NCBI GenBank assembly: GCA_964386385.1
Contig: CAYLRN010000001.1
Location: 172,706-236,705, forward strand
Source of the DNA: an uncultured Lentisphaeraceae bacterium
GTDB taxonomy: Bacteria; Verrucomicrobiota; Kiritimatiellia; RFP12; UBA1067
Length of the DNA stretch: 64,000 nucleotides
Reading direction: 5' to 3'
In this document: positions 3,797-48,787 of the stretch, in pieces
Layout of the letters: the number at the start of each line of letters is the position of its first letter
Numbering within the stretch: the stretch's first letter is position 1
Made by a program: the position numbers and the translations under genes
The notes under the pieces: model-generated
Database searches by the model: none
Seen by the model: the letters and a program-made list of their open reading frames with translations, nothing else
What the model was told of the DNA's origin: nothing

Positions 3797-6700
3797 TCAG
3801 CGGAGGATCAGCAGCGTTCCGACGGCGGTGACGACGGAGATGCGGCCGTTCTCGAAGACGAGCGCGGAGTTCGGCGCAGCGCCAGAGACGGAACACGCAA
3901 GGTCCGCCGCGTCTGGCTCGTCGCCGGAGTACGCGAAGAGCGGGAATTTGGGCGGCAGCTTCACCGGACGGTCTGCCATCTGCACGACCGCGCCCTTCTC
4001 GGACTTGAACTTCGCAAGCGGGACGGGAGCGGACTGGCTGAAGCTCGCGCGCAGGACGCCGCCGCTCTGCAGCCACAGTTCGTCCAGCGCCTCCGGCGTC
4101 GCAGCCACCATGTCGAAGACGCCGCCGGCCGCGACGCCGAGCGTTCCGCGCACGGAACCGGCCACCGCCAGGCGCTGCCCGGCGGCCAGCGCGAAGGGCC
4201 GGTTCGTCGTCGTCGGCAGCACGAGGCTCGCGCCCGCCGCCACAGTGACGTTCGTCGCGGCGAGGCCGCACGCGCCCGAATCGCTCGCATGGGGGAACTG
4301 CGAGGGCGTCAGGATGCCGTACTTCGCAACCCAGGCGTCGGTCAGAGCCTTTACGGCCGCGTCGTCGATGAAGGAATCGTAGAGGCGCACCGCGGCGATC
4401 TCCCCCTTGTAGTTGAAGTCGCAGTTGCCGCTGCCGACAAGAACGCGCATTGCCTCGCGCGGCGTTCCGCCGGATCCGGCCGCCAAGAGGCGCATATGCG
4501 TGAAAACGCCGTCCACGACGATGCGCATGAGGCCGGTGTCAGTGTCGAAGGAGCAGACGGCGCAGTGAGGCTGGCCGTCGGCGAGGTCCCAGACGCGGCT
4601 GACAGTGGACTGGTCGCCGCGCGTAGACACGTTCTTTCCGCCGTAGCCGGCCATGACGCGGTTGCCCTCGCCCCAGAGACCCAGTCCCCAGTCCGCCCGG
4701 TTGCTGGTGGGAAGTTCCGCGCCGACCATAACTGACGACGCGAAGAAGTTGCGGTTCATGGTCACGGAATCAGGCATGTTTCCGTTCGTCGACGTGCGGA
4801 ATACGACCGCAGCCGTCCAGGCGACCTTGCCGGAGGCTGGCGAATCGCCGGCGGGGATGCCGAGGGAGGTGTTGTTTCCGTTGAAATAGACGGAGTTGTG
4901 TCCGTTGATCGCGCCCTTGCGCAGAACGGGTCCCTTCCAGGTGGAGGCGTAGGACGTGGCCGACAGGTCGCTTGTTCCCGTGATGCGCGTGACGTTCGCC
5001 TTGTTCGCCGTGCGCGTTCCATCCGTCGAAAGCCATTCCGTCACCTCCGCACCGTCGGCGACGTCGACGATCGAATCGGCGTCCCACGCGGCGGCGCCGT
5101 CGTCCGGAATTGCCGCGGGGACTTTCTCCCCCATCGGCGGAACGTCGCCCTGCGCCGAATCGTCATCCAGCTCTCCAACCGCGTAGACGCTCGCAGGCGC
5201 GCCGTACTTCCCGGCGAGTTCCACGCCGACGGCGGCCTTTTCGCTCCATGTCAGAGTCCTGCCGGGATAGAAGCGGATCTCGGCCAGCGCGCCCGTGAAC
5301 GCGAACTTGTACGGGGCGTCGGCGTCGGCAATGTTCTGGACGCCGAAGTAGATGTCCGCCGCGTTGCGCGGGCTGCGCGTCGTCTCGTCGAGGTCGACGG
5401 CCCTCTCGACGGTCTCGCCGTCGACGGAGAGCGTGAGCGTCCCGTCGCCGGCCATGGCGTAGATGGCAACGTGCGGCCGGCCGTCGGCGTAGCTGCGAGC
5501 CTTCGTGTAGACGCTGTAGTCCTTGTTGAGCTTGGCGACGCCGAAGCCGGCGCCGACATGTCCGTTCGCGCCGAAGACAAGCCCCCAGTCGTTCACGCAG
5601 CCCGGCTGTTCGCGTCCGAGAATGCCGGTCTCCATATACCACGAGTTGTCCCAGCCCAGGCCGGGCGTCGCAGTCTTGAAGACGACTGCCAGCGTCCAGT
5701 TGGTCTGCCCTGCGAGCGGATTTTCCTCCGCCACGACCTTGAGCGCGGAGTGGTCGAACACGACGCCCGGCCGGCCGTTGAACTCGTCGAGAGAGGCCTT
5801 GGGAACTGTCGTCGGATTCGACGAAAACGTCGGAACCACGGCAGTGCGCGAGGCAGTGGAGTCCGGCCATGCGACGACGTCGTCCCCGTCGGCAAGAGCC
5901 GCGACGGCGTCCTCCGCGCGCCAGGCTACGCATCCGGCGGCAGTCGCGGAAGAGGAGGAGGACATTGGCGCGCCCAGTATCTTGACCGTCCCCTCGTCGA
6001 CGGCGAGTTCGCCCGTGAACGCCGAGGCGTCCCCGAGGACGAGCGTGCCGGCCCCCTTCTTCGTGAGGACGCCGCATCCCTTGAGCGGGGCGCGCATGGC
6101 GAATCGGCGGTCCCGCGTGTCGACTGTCGCAGAGGCTCCGGAAGGGACGATCGTGTCGAGTTCGCTGAACGAGTCGGCCGTAGCCGCGAGCGTTCCGCCG
6201 CGCAGTTCGACGCGATACCAGGAGTCGGTCGTCGCGCCCGAGTTCCACCGCCCTTCAGTGGCCGAGAATCCGCGCGAACCGATTTCGAAGAGGCCGCCGG
6301 AGAGCGTGAACGTGCAGTAGCTGTTCGTGACGGGAATCTGGCGGTCGGCCCCGAACGTCGTCGCTCCGCCCAGCGCGACGCGCGGGACGCGCACGGCGCC
6401 GCCCGACTGGCGGTATGCGGCGGAGGGGGAGTTCACGACCGTTCCGTTGTCGCGCCTTGAGAACGCGAGGATCAGTCCGTCGTCGCCCGGCTGGCTGGAA
6501 GAGGTTTCGTCGACGGCAAGCGTTCCGCCCTTCACCGTGAAGTCGTGGGAGACGAGCTGGTGGCCGCCGCGGTCGCCCATCCAGAGCGTCCCCAGATTCG
6601 CCGTGCCGCCGTCCAGGACGAACTTCGGGTTGGCGTACCAGGTAGAAGAGCCGTTGCCCATGTAGAACGTCGTAGCGTCGAAGCGTCCGCCCGTCAGTTC

Positions 6701-7552
6701 GTAGAGCGAGTCGTACTTGCTGAAGCCGACCTGCGCCAGGACCGCCTTGACGTGTCCGCCGGACTGGCGGAACTCGCCGGAGTCGACGACGAAGACGCCG
6801 TTTGTGAAGACCGCGCCGTCGCCAAAGACCACCTTCGGCGCGCCCGGCTGCGTGAGAAGCAGATAGCTGCCTCCGCCACCCATGTTGACGACGACGCCGG
6901 GGAAGACGTCCTTCCAGTCCGCCTTGTCGGTGAACGTCAGTTCGAGCCGGGCGCTTCCGCTCCAGCGAAAGTCCTGCGCCCAGACGCCAGGTTTCGCCAG
7001 GCGCGCGACATTGTGTCCGCCGGACGCGAAGCGGTAGCCGAGCGTCCCCGCATAGGCCGGCGGCGCATTGTGGCAGGCCAGCACGGCGTTGGAGACTACG
7101 AGTTCGGAATTGCCGCCGATGGCGGCGTTGAAAAAGACCTTTGCCAGTCCGAAATCCCATGTCTGGTCCGCGGCCGTCGCCAGGCGGACGCTGAACGTGA
7201 GGTTGGAATCCGCCCCTGCGGCATGGCGGGCCGTCAGGCCGTCCGCGCCCAGGGCCAGCGTCGTCGTCGCGCCGGCCGCCGCGTTCGTGCCGACGACGAC
7301 GGCGCCGTTGGGGACGTTCGTGAGGACGAGGCCGCCTAACGCGAGGCTGGCGGAATTCGTCAGGGCAGCCATTCCCGGCCGCGCCGCGAAGTCGACCCAC
7401 GCGACGTCGTCCTCCCCCGGCAGGACACCGCCCGCCCAGTTCGCCGCGACGGCCATGTCCGCCGATTCCGCGCCGGAGAACCTTACGACCTCGCCCCGCG
7501 CCATCGCGAGAGCAAGCCCCATTGCGACTGCACAATACGCCGCCTTGACCAT
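3797..7552 (-). CDS. Giant secreted protein of about 1252 aa. It has multiple LamG/concanavalin-A-like lectin domains and an autotransporter-associated beta-strand (PATR) repeat.
   Basis: Start ATG at 7552 is preceded by AAGGAGG. Signal peptide is MVKAAYCAVAMGLALAMA. GTLVLGDASAFTGELAVDEGTVKILG matches the PATR repeat. LamG-like signatures include TLTLSVDGETVERAV and GEIAAVRLYDSFIDDAAV. The ORF-track start at 7945 is an upstream read-through. Confidence 0.75.
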   Translation of the reverse strand: MVKAAYCAVAMGLALAMARGEVVRFSGAESADMAVAANWAGGVLPGEDDVAWVDFAARPGMAALTNSASLALGGLVLTNVPNGAVVVGTNAAAGATTTLALGADGLTARHAAGADSNLTFSVRLATAADQTWDFGLAKVFFNAAIGGNSELVVSNAVLACHNAPPAYAGTLGYRFASGGHNVARLAKPGVWAQDFRWSGSARLELTFTDKADWKDVFPGVVVNMGGGGSYLLLTQPGAPKVVFGDGAVFTNGVFVVDSGEFRQSGGHVKAVLAQVGFSKYDSLYELTGGRFDATTFYMGNGSSTWYANPKFVLDGGTANLGTLWMGDRGGHQLVSHDFTVKGGTLAVDETSSSQPGDDGLILAFSRRDNGTVVNSPSAAYRQSGGAVRVPRVALGGATTFGADRQIPVTNSYCTFTLSGGLFEIGSRGFSATEGRWNSGATTDSWYRVELRGGTLAATADSFSELDTIVPSGASATVDTRDRRFAMRAPLKGCGVLTKKGAGTLVLGDASAFTGELAVDEGTVKILGAPMSSSSSATAAGCVAWRAEDAVAALADGDDVVAWPDSTASRTAVVPTFSSNPTTVPKASLDEFNGRPGVVFDHSALKVVAEENPLAGQTNWTLAVVFKTATPGLGWDNSWYMETGILGREQPGCVNDWGLVFGANGHVGAGFGVAKLNKDYSVYTKARSYADGRPHVAIYAMAGDGTLTLSVDGETVERAVDLDETTRSPRNAADIYFGVQNIADADAPYKFAFTGALAEIRFYPGRTLTWSEKAAVGVELAGKYGAPASVYAVGELDDDSAQGDVPPMGEKVPAAIPDDGAAAWDADSIVDVADGAEVTEWLSTDGTRTANKANVTRITGTSDLSATSYASTWKGPVLRKGAINGHNSVYFNGNNTSLGIPAGDSPASGKVAWTAAVVFRTSTNGNMPDSVTMNRNFFASSVMVGAELPTSNRADWGLGLWGEGNRVMAGYGGKNVSTRGDQSTVSRVWDLADGQPHCAVCSFDTDTGLMRIVVDGVFTHMRLLAAGSGGTPREAMRVLVGSGNCDFNYKGEIAAVRLYDSFIDDAAVKALTDAWVAKYGILTPSQFPHASDSGACGLAATNVTVAAGASLVLPTTTNRPFALAAGQRLAVAGSVRGTLGVAAGGVFDMVAATPEALDELWLQSGGVLRASFSQSAPVPLAKFKSEKGAVVQMADRPVKLPPKFPLFAYSGDEPDAADLACSVSGAAPNSALVFENGRISVVTAVGTLLILR

Positions 7553-7677: not shown

Positions 7678-8526
7678 TTATGGGAGTCGGACGGCGACTT
7701 TCTTCGGCGGCATGACGTCGGGGAGACCGAGGGCCAGGTACTTCGCCCGCGCGTAGTCGTTGTACTCCAGCTCCACGCGAGCGTCCTTTGCGATGCCCAT
7801 CCCGTCGAGGTCGCGATGGCGCGCGGCAAGGTCTGCGCCGTCCGTCAGATTGGGAACGACGAGCAGGCGGACTTCCATTTTCGCCTTCGCCGCGACGAGC
7901 CGGGCGAGATTGCGCAGAATGAGCTCGTTTGATACGCCTGTGCATCGGCGATGGAGATCAGCGCCGTGCGCCTTGTAGTCGGGAAGCCACATGTCCGTCA
8001 CTGGAAGCATCGCCTCGATTGCGGCTGGCGGCGCGTGAAGCGACGTGTCCAGGCAGGTCCGCAATCCCGCCGCGCGGAAGCGCGCGAAGAGCTCCGCCGC
8101 CCATTCCCAGAAGAAGAGCGGTTCGCCGCCGGAGAGAGTGACGCCGCCGCCCGTCCGCTCGTAGAACGGCCTGTCTTCAAGCGCCAGCTCGACGATGCGC
8201 TCCATTGTCATCGGCTTCCCGTAGAACTTCAGCGCACCGGTCGGACACGTCGCCTCGTCGTTCGTGCAGACCTTGTGTCGAACGCACTTGTGCCGGAAGC
8301 GCGCCAACTGCGGCTTCGGGTCGATCGACTCCGGGTTGTGGCACCACAGGCATTTCAGCGGACACCCCTTGACGAAGAACGTCGTCCTCATCCCCGGGCC
8401 GTCCCATATTGCCATCCGCTTCACGTCGAGAAGCAGCGGCGTACGCAGCGGACGGCCGGCAGCGAACGCCGGCGCCAGAGCACATGACGCAACGCCTGCC
8501 AGGAATCCCTTGCGAGTCGTCTTCAT
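7678..8526 (-). CDS. Glycyl-radical-enzyme activating protein (radical SAM, PflA-like), 283 aa. It has an N-terminal Tat/Sec-like hydrophobic extension.
   Basis: CPLKCLWCHNPESI (CX3CX2C), WDGPGMRTTFFVKGC, and a ferredoxin-like Cys cluster CVRHKVCTNDEATC. Start ATG at 8526 overlaps the upstream GRE stop (ATGA). The N-terminus reads MKTTRKGFLAGVASCALAPAFAAG. Confidence 0.8.
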   Translation of the reverse strand: MKTTRKGFLAGVASCALAPAFAAGRPLRTPLLLDVKRMAIWDGPGMRTTFFVKGCPLKCLWCHNPESIDPKPQLARFRHKCVRHKVCTNDEATCPTGALKFYGKPMTMERIVELALEDRPFYERTGGGVTLSGGEPLFFWEWAAELFARFRAAGLRTCLDTSLHAPPAAIEAMLPVTDMWLPDYKAHGADLHRRCTGVSNELILRNLARLVAAKAKMEVRLLVVPNLTDGADLAARHRDLDGMGIAKDARVELEYNDYARAKYLALGLPDVMPPKKVAVRLP

Positions 8527-11393
8527 TGCGCGATTCCCTCCGCGCGCCGGATGTAGGCCTCCTGCTCCTTTCGCGGCATGTCGTTCCAGCGGACGTTCCA
8601 GCCGCACACGCGCACCTGCAGGTTCTCGTATTTTTCGGGCCGCCGCTGGGCGTCGCGCAGCGTCTCCACGTCCACGACGTTGAAATGGATCGCGCATCCG
8701 CCGTTCGCGAAATACGTCTGCACCAGCGCCTTCATCGCGTCAAGCCCCTTATCGCCTCCCACGGCGTACGGGAGAAGCATGACGTCGAGCGGGAAGTCGC
8801 CCGGCAGGTCGCGGGCGTCGAGGTGGGCGACGGATAGCAGAAGCGCCGTAACGCCCTCCGTGTCGGCGCCCATCGTGGGGGAGACGTTCTTGCTCATCTC
8901 CTCGCCGGCGCGGCGTCCGTCCGGCGTCGCGCCCGTGGCGCGGCCAAGGTCGATGAACTGCTTCGCGCAGTGTCCGCTCGCCTCGAACGCGCCGTTGCGC
9001 GAATTCGGGACGCCGTTCAGGCATTTAGCGTAGGCCTTGACGATTTCGTCGGCGAGATGGTTCGCCTCCGCGTCGTTGTTTCCCCACTTGCGCTTCGAGC
9101 GCTGCATCCTGAGGCGGAGGTCTTCACGCCCTTCCCAGTTCTTCGCCATCAGCGCGCCGAGTTCGGCAAGCGACATCTCACGGCGCTCGTAGACGATTTC
9201 CTCCACGGCGAGCAGCGCGTCGACCGCGGTGCCGAGGCCGGTCTGGAGGACGGAGGAGAAGTTGCCGCGCCGAGTGCCGTCGACGAATGCGTCCTTCCCG
9301 GTCATGACGCTGTATTCCGTGGCAAGCGAGAAGAGAAGGGACGGGTTGACTTCGGCAAGAGTCCTCTCCCACTCGAACGCGAGATTGCGGCTCTCGACGG
9401 TCGTCTCCGCAAGCCGCGCCAGGTAGGCCCGCCTGAACGCCGCGAAATCGGCGGCGGCGAAAGTCCCGTCCTTCGCGCGATCGAGCAGTTCCTCGACGAC
9501 CTTCAGCAGATTGACGTGGGAGATGCCGGTGCCGTTGTAGCCGTCCCTGAGGCCGAACTCGTAGCAGCCGGCGACGACCATCGCGCGGCAGTCCTCGTCA
9601 GTGCAGTCGCGTATCTTGCCCTTCAGCACGCGCGCCATCGGCTCTTCGCCGCAGAAGACGAGCGAACGGTGTCGGCGCGCCATGTCGAGGGCCTTACGCC
9701 AGACCCAGTCGGGGGTGGAGGCCGCCATCTTGAGCTGGACTTTCGGCGTCGGCAGGGCGAGTTCGTCGTGCACTTCAAGGAGAATGCGCGAGACCTCGTT
9801 GTACGCGCTCGTGCCGTCGGCGTTCGTGCCGCCGAAATAGACGGGCTGCCCCCAGTAGTTGTCGATCGACCCCCACTGCCACCAGAAGTGGCGGAGCTGT
9901 TCGCGGAACTCCGCCTCGGTCGTCCGCCCCGCCGCGATGTCTGCGCGGTAGTAGGGCGTAAGGAGGCGGTCGAGGTTGCCGAGGGAGCGGACCTGGAAGC
10001 TGTCGAAGTTCTCGCTCATCACCCAGTCGAGATAGATGAAGAGCAGGACGTCATAGGCCGTCCGCGGCGCGCCCGCGCGCAGGCGGCGCAGGGAATCGCG
10101 CTCCTTCTCGAGGCGGGAGACGCGCCGCGCATGAACCGCGCCGGGCGGGTCCGCCGCCTCGCTCCGCAGGGCAGCCAGACGACGCTCCGACTGGACGACG
10201 AGGCGGTCCAGATGGCGAAGGACGGCGTCTGCGGCCATGAGACGGCTTTCGTAGTAGGCGTTTCCGTCCTTCCAGTTCGCCAGCAGACGTTCCCGGAGGC
10301 CGGGGAAGCCGAGCGGCAGAATAGCGTCCCAGTCGGGGACGGAATGGTCGTAGTCCTTCCACATGTTCCAGCGTCCGGCCTTGCGCCCGGCATGGATCTT
10401 CGCCGGCACGTCCGGACACGTCCGGGCGTCCACCTCCCCGCTGCGCTGTCCCATGATGGAATTGAGAGGATGCCCGAACCTGTGCTTCGTCCAAAGCGCG
10501 TAGGCGGGAAACCAGTCAAGGGGCGAGACGTCTATCGCCGCGCGGTCGCAGCAGAACGCGAAGAGCTTAGCCTTTACGACGCTCCACGGCATTCTGCCCT
10601 TGCTCTCCTCCGCAAGCCTTGAGAGCGCCCCGCGCATCTCCTCGCGCTCAAGGCCGGTGGCGGGGTCTGCGACAGGGGTCCGCCACTTGAAGCGAAGGTA
10701 GTCCGCCTCGTTCGCGAACGGCGCGATCGTCCGTTCCTCGTACGGGGTCAGGACGACGTTGCGCAGACGTATCGCCACCCGTCCCTGCGGATAGGGCTGC
10801 GTCTGGAAGCCGATGCGTCCCGCGCGCGGAACTGTCACGAAGCAGCGGCTCACCTCCACTCCGTCCCACGAACACGCGACATCTCCCTCGACGCTGCGGA
10901 CGGCGAGGCGATGCCAGGCGCCGGGCGTCCGTCGCGCCGCTACGGCGCGGGGGATGCGATGGTAGCCGACTCCCGACATCGGACCCGACTGCGGCGTGGC
11001 GCCGACCATCAGCCCCGGCCATCCCCACAGGTCGCCGATGTCCGTCGTCTTCAACTGGAATTCAAGACCCGACGCCTGGTCGCCGTCGCCGACAAGAACG
11101 GCCAGCCCTCCGTCGCCGAACGAATCGTCGGCGTACTGTATTTCGGCCGTGAGCTTGAAATCGCGCCAGCGTTCCCTCGTCGTCAGGACGAGCGGCCTGG
11201 CGCCGTTCATGGTCAGGACGCCGTCCGCCAGGCTGAACGTCTCCGCGACGTCGGCGGCGGACTTCGCCATCGGGCAGTCGAAGTCCGCCAGCGTCCGCCC
11301 GGCGAACAGATCCACCGGCGGAAGCGCGGTCGGCGCGGCAAGTCCCGTCCATGCGGCAAGGACCCCGGCGGCGATGGCCATTTCAAGTTTCAT
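8523..11393 (-). CDS. Fusion protein of 956 aa: signal peptide + DUF1080 (3-keto-disaccharide-hydrolase-like/LamG-like) module + glycyl-radical-enzyme (PFL-family) fold.
   Basis: RBS AAGGAGG precedes the ATG at 11393. N-terminus is MKLEMAIAAGVLAAWTGLAAP. DUF1080 signature ...DFKLTAEIQYADD...GRIGFQTQPYPQGRVAIRLRNVVL. C-terminus QVRVCGWNVRWNDMPRKEQEAYIRRAEGIAQ parallels the PFL glycine-radical motif RVSGYAVRFNSLTKEQQ. AGCYEFG is the candidate thiyl-Cys loop. Confidence 0.75.
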   Translation of the reverse strand: MKLEMAIAAGVLAAWTGLAAPTALPPVDLFAGRTLADFDCPMAKSAADVAETFSLADGVLTMNGARPLVLTTRERWRDFKLTAEIQYADDSFGDGGLAVLVGDGDQASGLEFQLKTTDIGDLWGWPGLMVGATPQSGPMSGVGYHRIPRAVAARRTPGAWHRLAVRSVEGDVACSWDGVEVSRCFVTVPRAGRIGFQTQPYPQGRVAIRLRNVVLTPYEERTIAPFANEADYLRFKWRTPVADPATGLEREEMRGALSRLAEESKGRMPWSVVKAKLFAFCCDRAAIDVSPLDWFPAYALWTKHRFGHPLNSIMGQRSGEVDARTCPDVPAKIHAGRKAGRWNMWKDYDHSVPDWDAILPLGFPGLRERLLANWKDGNAYYESRLMAADAVLRHLDRLVVQSERRLAALRSEAADPPGAVHARRVSRLEKERDSLRRLRAGAPRTAYDVLLFIYLDWVMSENFDSFQVRSLGNLDRLLTPYYRADIAAGRTTEAEFREQLRHFWWQWGSIDNYWGQPVYFGGTNADGTSAYNEVSRILLEVHDELALPTPKVQLKMAASTPDWVWRKALDMARRHRSLVFCGEEPMARVLKGKIRDCTDEDCRAMVVAGCYEFGLRDGYNGTGISHVNLLKVVEELLDRAKDGTFAAADFAAFRRAYLARLAETTVESRNLAFEWERTLAEVNPSLLFSLATEYSVMTGKDAFVDGTRRGNFSSVLQTGLGTAVDALLAVEEIVYERREMSLAELGALMAKNWEGREDLRLRMQRSKRKWGNNDAEANHLADEIVKAYAKCLNGVPNSRNGAFEASGHCAKQFIDLGRATGATPDGRRAGEEMSKNVSPTMGADTEGVTALLLSVAHLDARDLPGDFPLDVMLLPYAVGGDKGLDAMKALVQTYFANGGCAIHFNVVDVETLRDAQRRPEKYENLQVRVCGWNVRWNDMPRKEQEAYIRRAEGIAQ

Positions 11394-11435: not shown

Positions 11436-14400
11436 TCAGAAAAGGCGGTTGGAGAGGAAGCAGGAGGCGACGACGTGGCCCTTGACGATGAATGTCGAGA
11501 CGGGGATGCGCATTCCGGTGAACTGCTTGAACCCCTGCAGCCACTGCCCCTTCAGCTCCAGTTCGAGGTCGCCCGTCTCGGCGCGGAACGAGACGACGCA
11601 CAGTTCGCGCGGCGAATAGCGGATTCCGGTGCCCAGGGCCTTCGAGACGGCCTCCTTCGCGCACCAGAAGCGGATGATGGCGCTTGGGGTGTCGACGGCG
11701 TTCATCGCCAGATCCTGCTCCTCCGGAAGGAAGACGCCGCGCGCGAATTCGTCGGAAAGATACCGGTCGAAGGCCTCCACGTCCACGCCGACATGGGCGT
11801 TGACCGCGACGGCGGCCATGATGAAGCGGGCGGTGTGGGCGATGGAGAGGTCGAAGTCGACGTCGCTGCGCATGTGGTGCAGCCACGGGCCCGTGACACG
11901 GGGCTTTCCGCTGGGGTCGGAATAGACCTGCACGTCGGCGTCGCTCCAGCGCGCCTGGTAGTATCTGTCCAGAAAGCGGCGGACCGCCTCCTTGGCGGCG
12001 ACGCGGCCGAAGAGCCATTCCGTCCGGCGCGCCACGCTGCCCTTCTCCTCCATCTCCGCGAACTCGTGGCGTTCGGTGCGTCCGAGGACGATGTGCGAGA
12101 GGGTCTTGAGCCAGAGTTCCTCGTTGCGTTCGAACATGGGGTAGTCGACGTCGGTCAGGACGGCGGTGGCCATCGCAAGGCCGGTCGCGCCCATGCGCTC
12201 CTCCGGGAGGGTGTGCGTCAGGTAGGTGCGCGCCGGTTCGAGGAGCATCTTTCGGTATTCGTCCGGCACGCGCTCGGTGTATTCCTCGTAGCCGCGCAGT
12301 TCCATGACAAGGTTTCCGTTGCCGTCGGAGACGAATATGTCGGAGATGAGGGACGTGGGGGTGACGCCGGTGTTGCGCAGATAGCAGTGCAGGCGGCGTC
12401 CGACGGGATGGGCGAGCGAGTGGAGGGAGAGGCCGCGGATGCGGAACGCATATGAAATCGCCCCGTGGAAGCGCTCGTGGCTGCGCCAGAGCTGGAAGCC
12501 GTCCGTGATCGCGGCCATGAGCTGCGGGTTGAGCACCCAGACCGGGACGGTCGTGTGGGACACCGCCCTGTCCGATTCTGGCACCTCAACTTCGTAGTCG
12601 AGCCCCGCCTCGCTCCATCGGTCCGCGCGGCGGATGCACTGCAGAAGCGAACCGGAGAAGAGCATGTCGGGATAGATGTCGCTCGTCTCCCAGTGGACGT
12701 CCCTCGGCGTAGTGCCGTGCTCCGGCGGCGTGAACGCCTCCGGCGGAAGGGGACCTTCGGAAAGGAGGAACGTCCCCTCCATCGCAGGCCACGTCCAGGC
12801 GGAACCGGGCGTGTCCTCGCGCACCTGGACGCGCACGGCGACGCGCGCGGAGGCGGAAGCCGCGACGCGCTCGGCCCGGACGAAGAGGCGGAGGCGGCCG
12901 TTCCTGAATGCGGCCATGCGCCGGCGCTGCAGGTCGTTCACCGCGACGACGTGGAGGCCCGGCGCCAGCTGCTGGGCGAGCTCTGCCATGATCTCCGCCG
13001 CGCCGACGAGCGTCAGCGCCGTAAACCCGCGAAGCGGCTCAAGCCCGGAGTCGGCGTGGTCGGGATGCGAGAGCTGCGACGTCCCGAGGGCGAAGTCGGC
13101 GAGGATCGGCTCCGCCTTGAGGTCGAACGTCTTCACCATCTCGATCGATATGCCCTGCTGGTGGGAGACGACGTCCATGTCTGAAATTAGCGGACACACG
13201 GCGCCGAAGCCGAACTGCTGTTCGCGGCGCCGCGCCTGGGCGGCGATGACGGCCGCGCGCACCGCGGCCCGGCTGCGGCGGTCCGACGCGCCGCCCATGG
13301 AGGGCGCAAGCGCGGAGACGGCCTGCGGCGGCGGGACGTCCACCGTCAGGGCGAGGCAGGGGAACTCGCGCGAAAGCGGCATCTCCGCCTCCATCCTGAC
13401 GTTGAGCGAGAGGGGCGACGAGAAGTCCAGAAGCCGGCATCTGCGCTGGCGGAAGAGAAGCGAGGGGTCGACGGCGGCGCCAAGGGCGGCGAGCTGGCCT
13501 ACGACGTGCATCAGCTGGACGAGGCCCACGCGGTGGATGGAGTCCGCCGCCATCACGACGCGCTCCTCTCCGCGCAGGACCTCGTCGGCAAGGCCGCAGC
13601 ACGTCCCGCGCGGGCCGACCTCCAGGAAGACGCGATAGCCGTCGGCGTACATTCTGCGAATCGTGTCCGCGAACATGACGGGCCGCACCCATTCCTCCGC
13701 CGCCTCGTCGCGCGCCTTGCGGACGCGGGGGTGGAGCGGTTCGGCGCGGCCGCACGAATAGACGGGGAACTGCGGCTTTTCGTCTATCCAGTTGGACGCG
13801 AACTTGCGCAGGAGCGGAAGCACCCCACGGCAGCCCGGCGTGTTGAACGGCCTGTCCACGGAAAGGCGGCGGACGCGCGCCCCGGCGGCGGAAAGGCGCT
13901 TCACGACGTCGGCGGCGCATTCCGGCGCGGCGGCGATTGTCATGTGGCGCGGGGAGAGGCGATACGCCACGCCGACCTTGTCAGGCGGGAACTCGCCCAA
14001 CGCGCGTTCCGTTTCGCCGGGGCTTGCAGAGACGACGGAGGCGAGGACGCACTTCGGAAGCCCCGAATGCCCCACCGCCGTGTTCACCACCTTGTACGTC
14101 TCCTGCAGGAATTTGAGCCGGTGCTTGCGCTCGAACTTCCCGAACATCCCGCTTGCGGCGAGGGCGCTCAAATCGCCTCCGGAAAAGCCCGTCGCCCCTT
14201 CCGGCACGATTCCGAGCGCGCGGAAGAGGCGCGTCAGCGCCATGTTGGCGGAATACGTGGAGACGACGGCCTCGGCGTAGCCGCCGGCCGCGAAGACGTC
14301 CGCGTCCCCGCGGTAGTACGGCGCCGGCGGGAATACGAACGACGACGGCTGGAAGGGGCCTGCGCCCTTCAGCGCGGCCTCGAGCTCGTCGAAGGGAAGA

Positions 14401-14819
14401 CGGCACTCGCGGAAGCGCACGGTGACGTCGCGAAGCATGTCGGGATAGAACGACATTGCGCCGGGATAGATGAACGCCAGCTTCCCGTCCGCGCCCTCGC
14501 CGAGGACGTGCCTGGAGAAGAAGTACGTCCCCGACTTGTCGCGCAGACGCTCCGTCTTCGCGTCGGCGATCCGCGCCGCGGCGGAGACGAGGCGGCCGCG
14601 CAGTTCCGGGACGTCGGAGACGACGAGCGCCAGAACCGCGGCCTTCTCGCCGTCAGCGAACCGGCGGGCGCACGTGTACGCGACGTCGCGCAGCTCCACG
14701 CCCGTGATCTGGTCGATGAACGACACAAGGCCGTTCACCTCGGACACAAGCCCATCCCTGTCCGCCGCGCCGAGCAGGACAAGTTCGCTTCCAAACCATT
14801 CGCTCAGGTCCGCGCTCAT
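11436..14819 (-). CDS. Multidomain PKS/FAS-like protein of 1127 aa: KS-AT-type linker + acyltransferase + dehydratase (hot-dog) + Sfp-type 4'-phosphopantetheinyl transferase. No carrier-protein domain was seen.
   Basis: AT: LAFIYPGAMSFYPDM, GFSGGDLSALAASGMF, FLEVGPRGT. DH: LSHPDHADSGLEPL...GAAEIMAE. PPTase: SGKPRVTG...FDLSIAHT, GVDVE, FWCAKEAVSKALGTG. The start overlaps the KS-like stop (ATGA). Confidence 0.7.
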   Translation of the reverse strand: MSADLSEWFGSELVLLGAADRDGLVSEVNGLVSFIDQITGVELRDVAYTCARRFADGEKAAVLALVVSDVPELRGRLVSAAARIADAKTERLRDKSGTYFFSRHVLGEGADGKLAFIYPGAMSFYPDMLRDVTVRFRECRLPFDELEAALKGAGPFQPSSFVFPPAPYYRGDADVFAAGGYAEAVVSTYSANMALTRLFRALGIVPEGATGFSGGDLSALAASGMFGKFERKHRLKFLQETYKVVNTAVGHSGLPKCVLASVVSASPGETERALGEFPPDKVGVAYRLSPRHMTIAAAPECAADVVKRLSAAGARVRRLSVDRPFNTPGCRGVLPLLRKFASNWIDEKPQFPVYSCGRAEPLHPRVRKARDEAAEEWVRPVMFADTIRRMYADGYRVFLEVGPRGTCCGLADEVLRGEERVVMAADSIHRVGLVQLMHVVGQLAALGAAVDPSLLFRQRRCRLLDFSSPLSLNVRMEAEMPLSREFPCLALTVDVPPPQAVSALAPSMGGASDRRSRAAVRAAVIAAQARRREQQFGFGAVCPLISDMDVVSHQQGISIEMVKTFDLKAEPILADFALGTSQLSHPDHADSGLEPLRGFTALTLVGAAEIMAELAQQLAPGLHVVAVNDLQRRRMAAFRNGRLRLFVRAERVAASASARVAVRVQVREDTPGSAWTWPAMEGTFLLSEGPLPPEAFTPPEHGTTPRDVHWETSDIYPDMLFSGSLLQCIRRADRWSEAGLDYEVEVPESDRAVSHTTVPVWVLNPQLMAAITDGFQLWRSHERFHGAISYAFRIRGLSLHSLAHPVGRRLHCYLRNTGVTPTSLISDIFVSDGNGNLVMELRGYEEYTERVPDEYRKMLLEPARTYLTHTLPEERMGATGLAMATAVLTDVDYPMFERNEELWLKTLSHIVLGRTERHEFAEMEEKGSVARRTEWLFGRVAAKEAVRRFLDRYYQARWSDADVQVYSDPSGKPRVTGPWLHHMRSDVDFDLSIAHTARFIMAAVAVNAHVGVDVEAFDRYLSDEFARGVFLPEEQDLAMNAVDTPSAIIRFWCAKEAVSKALGTGIRYSPRELCVVSFRAETGDLELELKGQWLQGFKQFTGMRIPVSTFIVKGHVVASCFLSNRLF

Positions 14820-16270
14820 CGCCGTTCCTCGCCTTCTGGTTCCTCCTCAAGCACCACCGCCGCCTTTCGTCCGCCCAGGTCGGAGACAAGCACGACCGCG
14901 CGGCGCGGCGACGACGGGTCGCCCGTGATCCACGGCCGCGGCTCGTTCAGCAGGTACACCGACGAGTTCGCGCTGGAGAGCTGCGCAAGCGGCGTCGCCA
15001 CCGGCATCTGCGGCGGAAGGATACGCCGGCGCAGGGCGATCGCCGCCTTGAGCAGTCCCGCCGCCGCCTCGGCGCGGAAGCAGTGCCCCACGTTCCCTTT
15101 CACGGAGCCGATGCCGACGAGCGGCCCGCCGGGGCGGTGCTCGCCCCAGACGGACTGCACCGCCTCCACTTCCGCGGCGTCCATTTCGGGGATACCGCAC
15201 CCTTCCGCCTCGACGAGCCCGATCGAGTGGAGCGGCGCCGCCGCGCGCTCCGCCGCATCCGCCAGCACGTCGGCGGCGGAGAGCTCCCCGCAGGAGACAG
15301 ACCTGACGAGCGCGTATATGCGGTCGTTCGCGGCAAGCGCGTCCGACTCGCGCTTCAGGACGAAGAACGCGCCGCCCTCGCCGGGAATCGTGCCGTGGGC
15401 GGACCGGTCGAAGGGAGTCAGTTCGGAGTCCTTGGAGAAAAGAACTTCGCCGGAGACGCCCTGAAGGAAGGCTCTGCTGAGCGGCGGCGTCAGGGCCCCG
15501 GCCAGCGCGACGTCCGCCCGGCCGCTGCGAAGGTCGTCCATCGCGCCGCGCAGCGACGCGACGCCGCTGAGAAAGCCGCCGTCTATCGTCGTCGCCCCGC
15601 CGGAAAAGGAGCATTCGTGCGCTATCCACGAGGCTATCCTGTGCCCTGAACCGGAAAGGAAGCTGGCGGCGTTCGCCTCCGGGAGGGAGGAAAGCAGCTT
15701 CTGCCTTATGTTCTCGAACGATTCCTGCGGGGCGTTGCGGAAGAACCTGCCGATGATCTCCATCGTCTGGTCGATGAAGAACGTGTGGTCGAGCCAGTTG
15801 ACCGTGGAGGCGTTGAAAGGCGGCGCGTAGCCGAAGCGCACCGTGCCGCGGTGCAGTTCGCGCCCATGCGGACGCATCCCCGCATCGACAAGCGCGTCGA
15901 ACGCCAGCTGGACGGCGAAGTAGAGATCCTGGTTTTCGCCCTTGTTTATCTGGCGCGGGAAGTTCTGGTCGCCGGGGACGCAGGCGTAGAGCCGCCCGAG
16001 CGTCCCGCCGTGCGTCGGATACGGGCGGTTGAAGAGGTTCTTCGCGCCCGGCAGCAGCGCGGTGTCGAACCCAAGCGGCGCGATGCCGCTCTTCTGGTGC
16101 ATTATCTGCCGCCAGAAGACGCCCGGGTCCGCCGCCTGCGCGAAACGGCATGACACGCCCACGATTGCTATTGGAATGCTTTGCACGCCACCAGTATAGC
16201 AAAAACGACCGCCGTGTTGTAGACACCGGCAATGGACAACAGGCGGCACGTTGTTGTACAATAGCCGCAT
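14816..16270 (-). CDS. Beta-ketoacyl-synthase-like protein with the active-site Cys replaced by Phe (KS0/chain-length-factor-like). The likely true start is the GTG at 16186.
   Basis: IAIVGVSCRFAQAADPGVFW resembles a PKS KS N-terminus. TIDGGFLSGV aligns to the TVDTACSSSL consensus, so C becomes F. GHCFRAEAAAGL keeps the His motif. Minus strand has TGcTATACT 6 nt upstream of GTG 16186. Confidence 0.65.
   Translation of the reverse strand: MRLLYNNVPPVVHCRCLQHGGRFCYTGGVQSIPIAIVGVSCRFAQAADPGVFWRQIMHQKSGIAPLGFDTALLPGAKNLFNRPYPTHGGTLGRLYACVPGDQNFPRQINKGENQDLYFAVQLAFDALVDAGMRPHGRELHRGTVRFGYAPPFNASTVNWLDHTFFIDQTMEIIGRFFRNAPQESFENIRQKLLSSLPEANAASFLSGSGHRIASWIAHECSFSGGATTIDGGFLSGVASLRGAMDDLRSGRADVALAGALTPPLSRAFLQGVSGEVLFSKDSELTPFDRSAHGTIPGEGGAFFVLKRESDALAANDRIYALVRSVSCGELSAADVLADAAERAAAPLHSIGLVEAEGCGIPEMDAAEVEAVQSVWGEHRPGGPLVGIGSVKGNVGHCFRAEAAAGLLKAAIALRRRILPPQMPVATPLAQLSSANSSVYLLNEPRPWITGDPSSPRRAVVLVSDLGGRKAAVVLEEEPEGEERR
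16186..16205 (-). promoter_or_regulatory. Extended -10 (TGcTATACT) immediately upstream of GTG 16186. This is a leaderless-type start for the KS-like gene.
   Basis: Minus strand reads ttTGcTATACTggtggcGTGcaaagcattccaatagca, which translates VQSIPIAIVG. Confidence 0.35.
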
Positions 16271-47833: not shown

Positions 47834-48787
47834 TCAGGTGAAGAAGACCTCTTCGCCGTGGAACATGAAGTTCCCGCCGACGACGTACTCCATCGCCGTC
47901 GGGGAGAACCGGTCCTGAACGGTGATGTGGAGGTGTCCGGCGAGGATTGCCTTGAGCAGCGGCTGCTTCCTGAGCGCGGCGATGAAGTCGCGCGTGACGG
48001 GGTCGTCGTGCTGCTTCTTGCAGTCGCCGCGGAAATCCGGGAGCGGGCCGCCGGCGAACTTCCTGTCGGACTTCCAGAACTTGTCGTTCGCGCGCCAGAT
48101 GGAGTCCGTGTAGAACGGCACATGCTGGCAGAGGACGATTGGCAGCCCCTTCTTCACCTCGCCGTTGAACAGTTCGACCTGGGTCGGCGTGACGTAGCCG
48201 TAGACGGAATCCATGGAGACGAAGTTGACGCCGTTGACGACCTGGGACGCGAAGTGGATGCCGAACGGATACGCCTTCTGGATGCGCTCGGCGGTTGCGG
48301 CCTTGTTGGCCTCCGTGGGCGTCTCCTTGTCAAGCCACATCGACTGCGAGTACTCGTGGTTGCCCATCGAGCCGAACATCGCCCCGCCGAAGTACTTCTT
48401 CACGAGGTCGAAGTTCTTCTCGCTCTGCCAGTCGATCATGTCGCCGGTATGGATGACGTAGTCGACGTTCTTCTTCGCCCATTCGAGCGAATCGCGAAGA
48501 GCCTCCTCCTGGCGGCCGCCGAACGTCTTCGTGCGGATTTCCTTCAGCTTCTGCTTCTTCCCGCCCTCGTTTGGATAGGCGTCGGTGAGATGCGTGTCGG
48601 AGATGTGGAGGACGGAAAAGGGCTTCTTCAGTCCGACGTGGACGTGGTTGTAGGCGAGGACGAGGCGCTCGAAGCGTCCGCGGGCCGGGAAGACAGCAGG
48701 GTTGTCGGCGAACGACGGAAGGGCCGCCGCAGCGGCAAGTCCGCCGAGGGAGGCGAGGAAAGTTCTTCTGTCTACGTTTGCGCTCAT
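47834..48787 (-). CDS. Tat-exported calcineurin-like metallophosphoesterase.
   Basis: Twin-arginine signal MSANVDRRTFLASLGGLAAAAALPSFA. Phosphoesterase motifs are LHISDTHL, HTGDMID and GNHE. Confidence 0.7.
   Translation of the reverse strand: MSANVDRRTFLASLGGLAAAAALPSFADNPAVFPARGRFERLVLAYNHVHVGLKKPFSVLHISDTHLTDAYPNEGGKKQKLKEIRTKTFGGRQEEALRDSLEWAKKNVDYVIHTGDMIDWQSEKNFDLVKKYFGGAMFGSMGNHEYSQSMWLDKETPTEANKAATAERIQKAYPFGIHFASQVVNGVNFVSMDSVYGYVTPTQVELFNGEVKKGLPIVLCQHVPFYTDSIWRANDKFWKSDRKFAGGPLPDFRGDCKKQHDDPVTRDFIAALRKQPLLKAILAGHLHITVQDRFSPTAMEYVVGGNFMFHGEEVFFT

Follow-up and report, generated by a model that had tools for sequence, protein, structure and literature searches.

A conserved Tat-like presequence on glycyl radical enzyme activases of gut Kiritimatiellae and its covariation with the export signals of their partner enzymes

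Glycyl radical enzymes (GREs) and the radical S-adenosylmethionine (SAM) activases that serve them are textbook cytoplasmic enzymes that work only under strict anoxia and require SAM and a donor of low-potential electrons. Activases of the TIGR02494 or pyruvate formate-lyase activating enzyme (PFL-AE) type, such as PflA, CutD and the activases of glycerol dehydratase and HypD, typically carry two ferredoxin-like motifs. The activase gene studied here lies at 7678..8526 on the minus strand of a 64-kb stretch of contig CAYLRN010000001.1 from an uncultured Lentisphaeraceae bacterium; we call the whole stretch the window, and all of its features described below are on the minus strand. The product shares the CX3CX2C, DGPG and GGE core of these activases and matches the fold of 3cb8, and its gene, like theirs, directly follows a GRE gene with a 4-nt overlap. 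It differs from them, however, by a presequence of ~24 residues that resembles a twin-arginine translocation (Tat) signal, and by an insert with only one short Cys motif, in which one Cys is replaced by His.

Two other described systems come close. Tat-exported iron-sulfur proteins, such as hydrogenase small subunits and ferredoxins of the NapG/NrfC type, resemble the activase in having an N-terminal signal of the S/T-R-R-x-F-L type with a weakly hydrophobic h-region and basic residues near the signal end, and in both cases the Tat route would be taken because the cofactor must be inserted before export. These proteins only transfer electrons, whereas the activase needs consumable SAM and a protein substrate across the membrane, and the commonest motif in the activase clade is R-K. 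The anaerobic sulfatase-maturing enzymes (anSME/AtsB) are likewise radical SAM maturases of a periplasm-destined enzyme, found in organisms rich in exported glycan-degrading enzymes; anSME stays cytoplasmic and modifies its client before export, whereas here the maturase itself bears the predicted export signal. Our evidence is computational throughout and comes from comparative sequence analysis. On balance we favor the view that the activase begins with a functional Tat-type signal of ~24 residues and that, once exported by Tat, it would install the glycyl radical in the periplasm on a partner GRE delivered there by Sec.

The activase and its presequence

The 282-aa open reading frame (ORF), presequence included, is judging by its motifs a genuine GRE activase with a complete and catalytically intact core. 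Its translation reads MKTTRKGFLAGVASCALAPAFAAGRPLRTPLLLDVKRMAIWDGPG...CPLKCLWCHNPESI, and the same 282-aa product is present in the NCBI and Logan gene calls. With NCBIfam TIGR02494, the model for GRE activating proteins (cut-off 174.35), the protein reached 214.5 bits, a score that bears out the canonical core that an earlier, sequence-only reading of the window had placed after the extension, and Pfam detected the domains Radical_SAM and Fer4_12. The AlphaFold2 model (mean predicted local distance difference test score, pLDDT, 92.3) found its best Foldseek match in PFL-AE (3cb8_A, E 6.1e-19, template modeling score 0.79 normalized to the target) and has the partial TIM-barrel of PFL-AE-like enzymes. 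The radical SAM cluster motif C55-x3-C59-x2-C62 (CPLKCLWC, 8341..8364) occupies invariant columns of the 67-sequence alignment A2, in which C55, C59, C62, D42-G45 (DGPG) and G133-E135 (GGE) are invariant or nearly so. The insert after this cluster contains a single auxiliary-cluster motif, C81-x2-H-x2-C87-x6-C94-P (8242..8286); the clade consensus in A2 is C-x2-C-x2-C-x6-C-P, and the His of the window protein takes the place of its second Cys. The neighboring GRE bears an RVxG glycyl motif and a catalytic Cys, and the same pairing recurs in L001-L005 and many other loci.

As the sequence-only reading had described, the activase ATG (8526..8524) overlaps the GRE stop TGA (8525..8523) in an ATGA. 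A Shine-Dalgarno sequence, GGAGGG (8536..8541), lies 10 nt upstream within the 3ʹ end of the GRE gene. The overlap was, however, not peculiar to this pair, as 21 of 49 distinct GRE-activase junctions share a 4-nt overlap, including outgroups without signals, indicating a general habit of GRE-activase pairs and not one specific to the signal. A longer ORF from an in-frame ATG at 8697 was rejected: it would overlap the GRE gene by ~170 nt, the added translation is the Arg/Gly/Ala-rich, out-of-frame 3ʹ end of that gene, and NCBI and Logan both start at 8526.

The N-terminal extension comprises 24-28 residues and is covered by no curated activase model. When the protein was aligned to these models to locate the start of homology, a check of the kind that the earlier reading had proposed, all of them began aligning downstream of the extension, at residues 30-34 of the window protein, and residues 29-37 (TPLLLDVKR, 8416..8442), the start of the activase core, aligned to positions 1-7 of every curated model. 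In the AlphaFold2 model the core begins at strand E32-39 with pLDDT >95, while residues 1-30 have values of 60-74 and include a short helix at 5-16. The predicted signal peptide occupies residues 1-24 (MKTTRKGFLAGVASCALAPAFAAG, 8455..8526). It contains a Tat-like motif, T4-R5-K6-G7-F8-L9 (8500..8517; consensus S/T-R-R-x-F-L), in which R5 is invariant in alignment A1, followed by an h-region at residues 8-21 (FLAGVASCALAPAF, 8464..8505) that is moderately hydrophobic by Kyte-Doolittle hydropathy and has a Pro near its end. The RK-G-F-L motif, the hydrophobic stretch and the AxA-like FAAG stand in the translation exactly as first described, and signal cleavage would probably fall near A23/G24.

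The Tat consensus is (S/T)RRxFLK, and Tat h-regions are less hydrophobic than those of Sec signals; export tolerates Lys, Asn or Gln at the position of the second Arg but is blocked when the first is lost (PMC1182353). In the structure of TatBC with a substrate, a helix-capping residue precedes the pair and the Phe is buried in a pocket of TatC (PMC13323110). Compared with the consensus S/T-R-R-x-F-L-K, the window motif T-R-K-G-F-L-A has Lys in place of the second Arg.

We compared 176 distinct orthologous presequences, collected from the 120 best homologues and from loci found in a one-genome-per-species scan and a metagenome scan. The extension was present in all 120 best homologues (68-80% identity, 274-291 aa), and the pattern that the earlier reading had named as contrary evidence, orthologues starting at MAIWDG with no upstream extension, was not found in this comparison of N-termini. 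The dibasic pair was RK in 99 presequences, RR in 66 and KR in 4, with 3 exceptions and 4 shortened starts, and the first Arg was almost invariant. It was preceded by T (119), S (13), N (13) or D (5); Phe occupied position +2 after the pair in 141/167, followed by I, L or V. The uncharged stretch, on average 16.7 residues long, is rich in Ala, Gly and Ser, with a Pro ~5-6 residues before the AxA-like end, and 2-3 basic residues follow the h-region ahead of the conserved KTPLMLD in 169/176 presequences. The c-region is only loosely AxA-like (FAAG, LSAAG, FAADG). The best 10-residue Kyte-Doolittle mean was 2.09±0.18 for the activase signals versus 2.59±0.36 for Sec-type GRE signals (p 1e-18), resembling the RR-type signals of other GREs in the partner family (1.97). 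The n/h/c architecture with an h-region below Sec hydrophobicity and basic residues at or after the c-region is present. Tat passengers are also expected to take up their cofactor in the cytoplasm; the [4Fe-4S] radical SAM motif and the auxiliary Cys motif are both there, from which we infer such loading. Profile models of Tat signals caught few of these presequences: Pfam TAT_signal (PF10518) matched 5/30 orthologues tested (best E 6.8e-4) and TIGR01409 matched 3/30. The extension is thus real and conserved far beyond chance and, taken over the family, shows the sequence features of a Tat signal.

Rare presequences lack the dibasic pair (S-K or R-G) and keep the rest of the signal, as in the activase of L111 (MKTTSKEFIAAS..) and in two with T-R-G-E; these may be decaying signals or tolerated variants.

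The presequence behaves as a detachable module. Among the 150 cluster representatives (50% identity) scoring best against the window activase in a library of 1.84 billion proteins, the distance from the N-terminus to DGPG was 10-29 residues in ~125, and a hydrophobic extension was found in only 3, all from the clade of the window activase. Signal-less relatives from the same clade and the same organisms begin exactly at M-KTPLMLDTKRM, that is, at the core start. From the loci we recovered 118 distinct clade activases, 84 with a signal and 34 without. In a rough neighbor-joining tree, signal-less activases were basal in a few lineages and also appeared in at least eight scattered places within the signal-bearing clade, a pattern that speaks for the signal having been lost or gained repeatedly, each time at the same precise boundary. 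Nearly all loci came from Kiritimatiellae metagenome-assembled genomes of human, ruminant and horse guts, and more distant signal-less versions occurred in Victivallales and Clostridia.

Judging by gene content and signals, Tat is probably in use in these organisms. At L038:6972-8963, and also in L123, L128, L129 and L131, an OmpA-like gene, TatA/B (PF02416) and tatC (PF00902) directly follow a Tat-signal activase, indicating that organisms of this lineage possess the Tat machinery; these neighbors are confined to one gut Kiritimatiellae lineage and probably amount to one independent observation. No tat genes were found among the ORFs scanned with Pfam across the 64-kb window. The window does encode a 317-aa calcineurin-like phosphoesterase (Metallophos, 47834..48787) with a canonical twin-arginine signal (MSANVDRRTFLASLGGLAAAAALPSFA), which served as an internal comparison for the activase presequence and reached E 2.4e-4 against PF10518, just below the Pfam cut-off.

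Pairing of export signals

The partner GRE of the window activase (956 aa, 8523..11393) has a signal-like N-terminus of the Sec type at residues 1-~22 (11328..11393). Its family comprised 576 proteins at E <= 1e-50. Among the 120 best cluster representatives, ~94 had N-terminal signals (~64 Sec-like and ~30 Tat-like) and ~26 were called as having none, although several of the latter calls reflect shortened sequences or missed Tat signals. The Sec-like signals often read ..AFGRGESW followed by a proline-rich linker, and the Tat-like ones take forms such as VTRRGFL.., TSRRQFL.. and LRRREFLKG... One GRE subgroup (..LSTGVEIPDGG.., with a conserved LSTGVEIPDGGVP..HQYT.R.EKRP motif), seen in L001, L004, L015, L028, L031, L106, L111 and L142, has a short hydrophobic N-terminus with no basic n-region.

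Automatic choice of GRE start codons by Shine-Dalgarno score proved noisy; the complete GRE-activase pairs were curated by eye. A Sec-type GRE stood beside a Tat-signal activase in 26 loci, the window included, and beside a signal-less activase in none, so that all 26 of 26 activases next to Sec-type GREs carried the signal. Conversely, where a signal-less activase accompanied a signal-bearing GRE, that GRE was of the Tat type in 8/8 loci, which belong to two GRE subgroups and fall, in the tree, into a basal group and three other, separate positions. Tat-type GREs were paired with Tat-signal activases in 5 further loci. A GRE without a signal was found with a Tat-signal activase in 1 locus and with a signal-less activase in two Kiritimatiellae loci and all outgroups. 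For Sec or Tat type of the GRE against presence or absence of the activase signal, Fisher's exact test gave p = 2e-5, a value uncorrected for phylogeny and therefore overstating the significance.

The type of the GRE signal, as read from the sequences, thus covaries with the presence of a signal on the activase, and this is the most informative result of the analysis. A simpler rule, by which signal-less GREs would be paired with signal-less activases, was not upheld, since L007 combines a signal-less GRE with an RR-signal activase; this exception led to the better-supported rule of Sec-type versus Tat-type GREs. A simple rationale fits the rule. A Tat-exported GRE would leave the cytoplasm folded and could be activated there first. 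A Sec-exported GRE would cross the membrane unfolded, with no prior activation possible, so its activase would have to follow, and an activase that carries iron-sulfur clusters would be exportable only by Tat. Among the possibilities that the sequence-only reading had listed for the extension, an export signal matching the signal on the partner is the best supported, with the Tat-like motif kept in orthologues and signals present on most partner GREs.

Periplasmic activation and its rivals

All four steps of the mechanism we propose, namely cluster loading, Tat export, cleavage and periplasmic activation, are deduced from sequence. In the cytoplasm the activase would be fitted with its [4Fe-4S] cluster(s) and perhaps with SAM. 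TatBC would then recognize T-R-K-G-F-L, and the activase would be exported folded through TatABC, probably losing its signal near A23/G24. The DUF1080-fused partner GRE would cross unfolded via Sec, and so without prior activation, and the activase would abstract hydrogen from its Gly931 once both are in the periplasm. More speculatively, the activase may be exported SAM-loaded on a reduced cluster and fire once. A precedent for such loading before export is the glucose-fructose oxidoreductase of Zymomonas mobilis, which is exported by Tat with the organic cofactor NADP already bound in the cytoplasm; that enzyme, however, regenerates NADP each cycle, whereas the activase consumes SAM.

Several points weigh against periplasmic activation. 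To our knowledge there is no periplasmic source of SAM or of low-potential reductant, and we know of no extracytoplasmic radical SAM enzyme; a literature search found none either. All-against-all clustering of flanking ORFs from 169 loci revealed no conserved neighbor that might serve as an electron donor or SAM carrier, and only the GRE and the activase were recurrent. The window presequence, with its R-K pair, matched neither PF10518 nor TIGR01409 even at E <= 10, so that the Tat assignment rests on the family and not on this one presequence. Shared ancestry is not taken into account in the covariation statistic. Nor are the paired signals strictly complementary, as the 5 loci with Tat signals on both proteins illustrate, and L007 pairs a Tat-signal activase with a GRE that has no signal. 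In addition, several GRE start codons are uncertain, and for the ..LSTGVEIPDGG.. subgroup, which lacks a basic n-region, an ordinary Sec signal is doubtful.

In a co-export reading, which we regard as unlikely, the presequence would still be a Tat-type signal, but the activase would bind and activate its GRE before either crosses the membrane. Tat would then carry out the complex, or the activase with the activated GRE travelling as its passenger, and no radical SAM chemistry would be required outside. L007/L048, in which an activase with a strong RR signal accompanies a GRE with a well-defined start and no signal at all, are in agreement with it, and Tat is known to carry signal-less partner proteins (10.1101/2023.11.02.564894). 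Signal-less activases also pair with Tat-type GREs, which shows that some GREs of this family are probably activated in the cytoplasm first and then exported folded. The window GRE and 25 other GREs paired with Tat-signal activases, however, have their own Sec-like, strongly hydrophobic signals, which points to separate, unfolded export. Moreover, GRE-activase complexes are transient in known systems.

We are similarly doubtful that the presequence is an uncleaved signal-anchor, by which the activase, translocated by Tat or otherwise, would remain attached to the cytoplasmic membrane on its outer side. Tat-inserted N-terminal anchors do exist, for example in Rieske proteins, and with the c-region only loosely AxA-like, cleavage is not callable from sequence. 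On the other hand, a stretch averaging 16.7 residues, rich in Ala, Gly and Ser and containing a Pro, is short for a stable transmembrane helix and of low hydrophobicity, and the layout is that of a cleavable signal.

A role without export appears very unlikely. The peptide would then be a remnant or re-purposed Tat-like sequence used in the cytoplasm for chaperone binding, proofreading of cluster insertion or membrane association, comparable to the vestigial motif of NarG. Such a role would avoid the problem of periplasmic SAM and reductant, and it would suit a clade in which the commonest motif is RK and not RR. However, the full n/h/c architecture is under clear constraint across the 176 sequences, and the many losses are clean and always fall exactly at the core boundary. 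Signal-less activases were found beside signal-bearing GREs only where these are of the Tat type, and the partners carry export signals and domains of exported type.

The idea of a mis-called start, with translation from the GTG of V35 (8424..8422) or the ATG of M38 (8415..8413) and the upstream peptide not made, is hardly credible. Both in-frame start codons exist, and the Met that the sequence-only reading had seen near 8415 is indeed there; its suggestion that a start at this Met would give a conventional activase fails, because a start at either codon removes residues 29-37 and with them the conserved TPLLLDVKR. These residues are nearly invariant, align to the first model positions and form the first core strand. 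The extension is kept in orthologues and constrained at the protein level across the 176 sequences (invariant Arg, conserved Phe), signal-less relatives start at M-KTPLMLD and not at MAIWDG, and the GGAGGG box stands 10 nt before the ATG at 8526. Targeting of the activase to a bacterial microcompartment by an encapsulation peptide deserves next to no credence and was rejected together with the mis-called start: some GREs work within microcompartments and cargo can bear short N-terminal helices, but the peptide is not amphipathic, having a basic n-region, an uncharged h-region and an AxA-like end, and no shell-protein domains appeared in Pfam scans of the window ORFs judged to be genes or of the called genes of L001-L008.

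Partner enzymes, surroundings and significance

Following its signal, the window GRE carries a DUF1080 domain (PF06439, 3-keto-disaccharide-hydrolase) at residues 27-200 (10794..11315), a PFL-like domain at residues 344-806 and a Gly_radical domain at residues 834-937, all identified with Pfam. Alignment to dehydratase-type GREs located the Cys loop AGCYE (9558..9572) and the glycyl motif RVCGW (8598..8612), and over its catalytic half the core aligned with 8yjo (E 1.6e-42), 6vxc and 1r8w. The Cys loop G-C-x-E and the RVxG motif of the dehydratase-type enzymes (PflD, HypD and the B12-independent glycerol dehydratase) are thus conserved in the window GRE, which nevertheless scored far below every equivalog cut-off and differs from them by its N-terminal signal and DUF1080 domain.

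Fusions of this kind recur in the family. DUF1080 is fused N-terminally in the window GRE and three other members, GH16 together with a Sec signal in L010:2829-5960, a GH78 alpha-L-rhamnosidase in L119:100-3996 and a SASA sialate O-acetylesterase in P0177. The variety of these carbohydrate-active domains points to glycan-derived substrates, and the substrate of the window GRE is probably carbohydrate-derived. The genes around the GRE loci are variable, and are often glycoside hydrolases.

GRE paralogues also occur in tandem, two or three together, in L006:1-6139, L015, L021 and L028. In L021, a Sec-type and a Tat-type GRE are followed by a Tat-signal activase. None of the three GREs in L006 has an activase directly downstream, suggesting that a single activase may be shared by several GREs.

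The window itself is chromosomal DNA of 65% G+C that carries housekeeping genes along its whole length. Directly upstream of the GRE gene on the same strand (11436..16270) are a ketosynthase gene (484 aa) and a gene for a 1127-aa fusion of acyltransferase, dehydratase-like and phosphopantetheinyl-transferase parts, which with the ketosynthase resembles part of a polyunsaturated-fatty-acid or polyketide synthase; neither shows an evident link to the GRE, and orthologous GRE loci lack both. The 1251-aa protein encoded downstream of the activase, at 3797..7552, has a signal peptide and one PATR (autotransporter passenger-associated) repeat. Called mechanically, this ORF extends to 7945; its likely start is the ATG at 7552, which follows AAGGAGG.

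The enzyme families described here are known; the novelty would lie in where they are predicted to work and in the link between the export of a maturase and the route by which its client is exported. Our literature search, whose coverage did not extend to all journals, returned no paper on exported GREs, Tat-signal activases or Kiritimatiellae GREs. Three items that had looked promising as reports of an exported GRE or activase (PMC5606693, PMC9324843 and 10.1101/2023.11.02.564894) were unrelated in content.

Whether gut Kiritimatiellae run glycyl-radical chemistry outside the cytoplasm, with a Tat-exported activase and Sec-exported GREs, often fused to a glycoside hydrolase, an esterase or DUF1080, acting directly on glycans or their breakdown products, is in our judgment evenly poised on the present comparisons. 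If they do, this would be the first extracytoplasmic radical SAM and GRE system. It would imply either a SAM-loaded, pre-reduced, single-shot activase or a so far unknown periplasmic supply of SAM and low-potential electrons. It would also raise the questions of how SAM and electrons reach the exported enzyme, whether activation is stoichiometric or catalytic, and which glycan-derived substrates undergo radical C-O cleavage outside the cell. The several hundred uncharacterized GREs of the family, some fused to GH16, GH78, SASA or DUF1080, are a target for enzyme discovery. The covariation between the export route of the partner and the signal of the activase can be read as a natural experiment in fitting cofactor-dependent maturation to the Sec and Tat routes, and the chemistry, if it takes place where the signals predict, would be placed in the periplasm of abundant glycan degraders of the gut and rumen.

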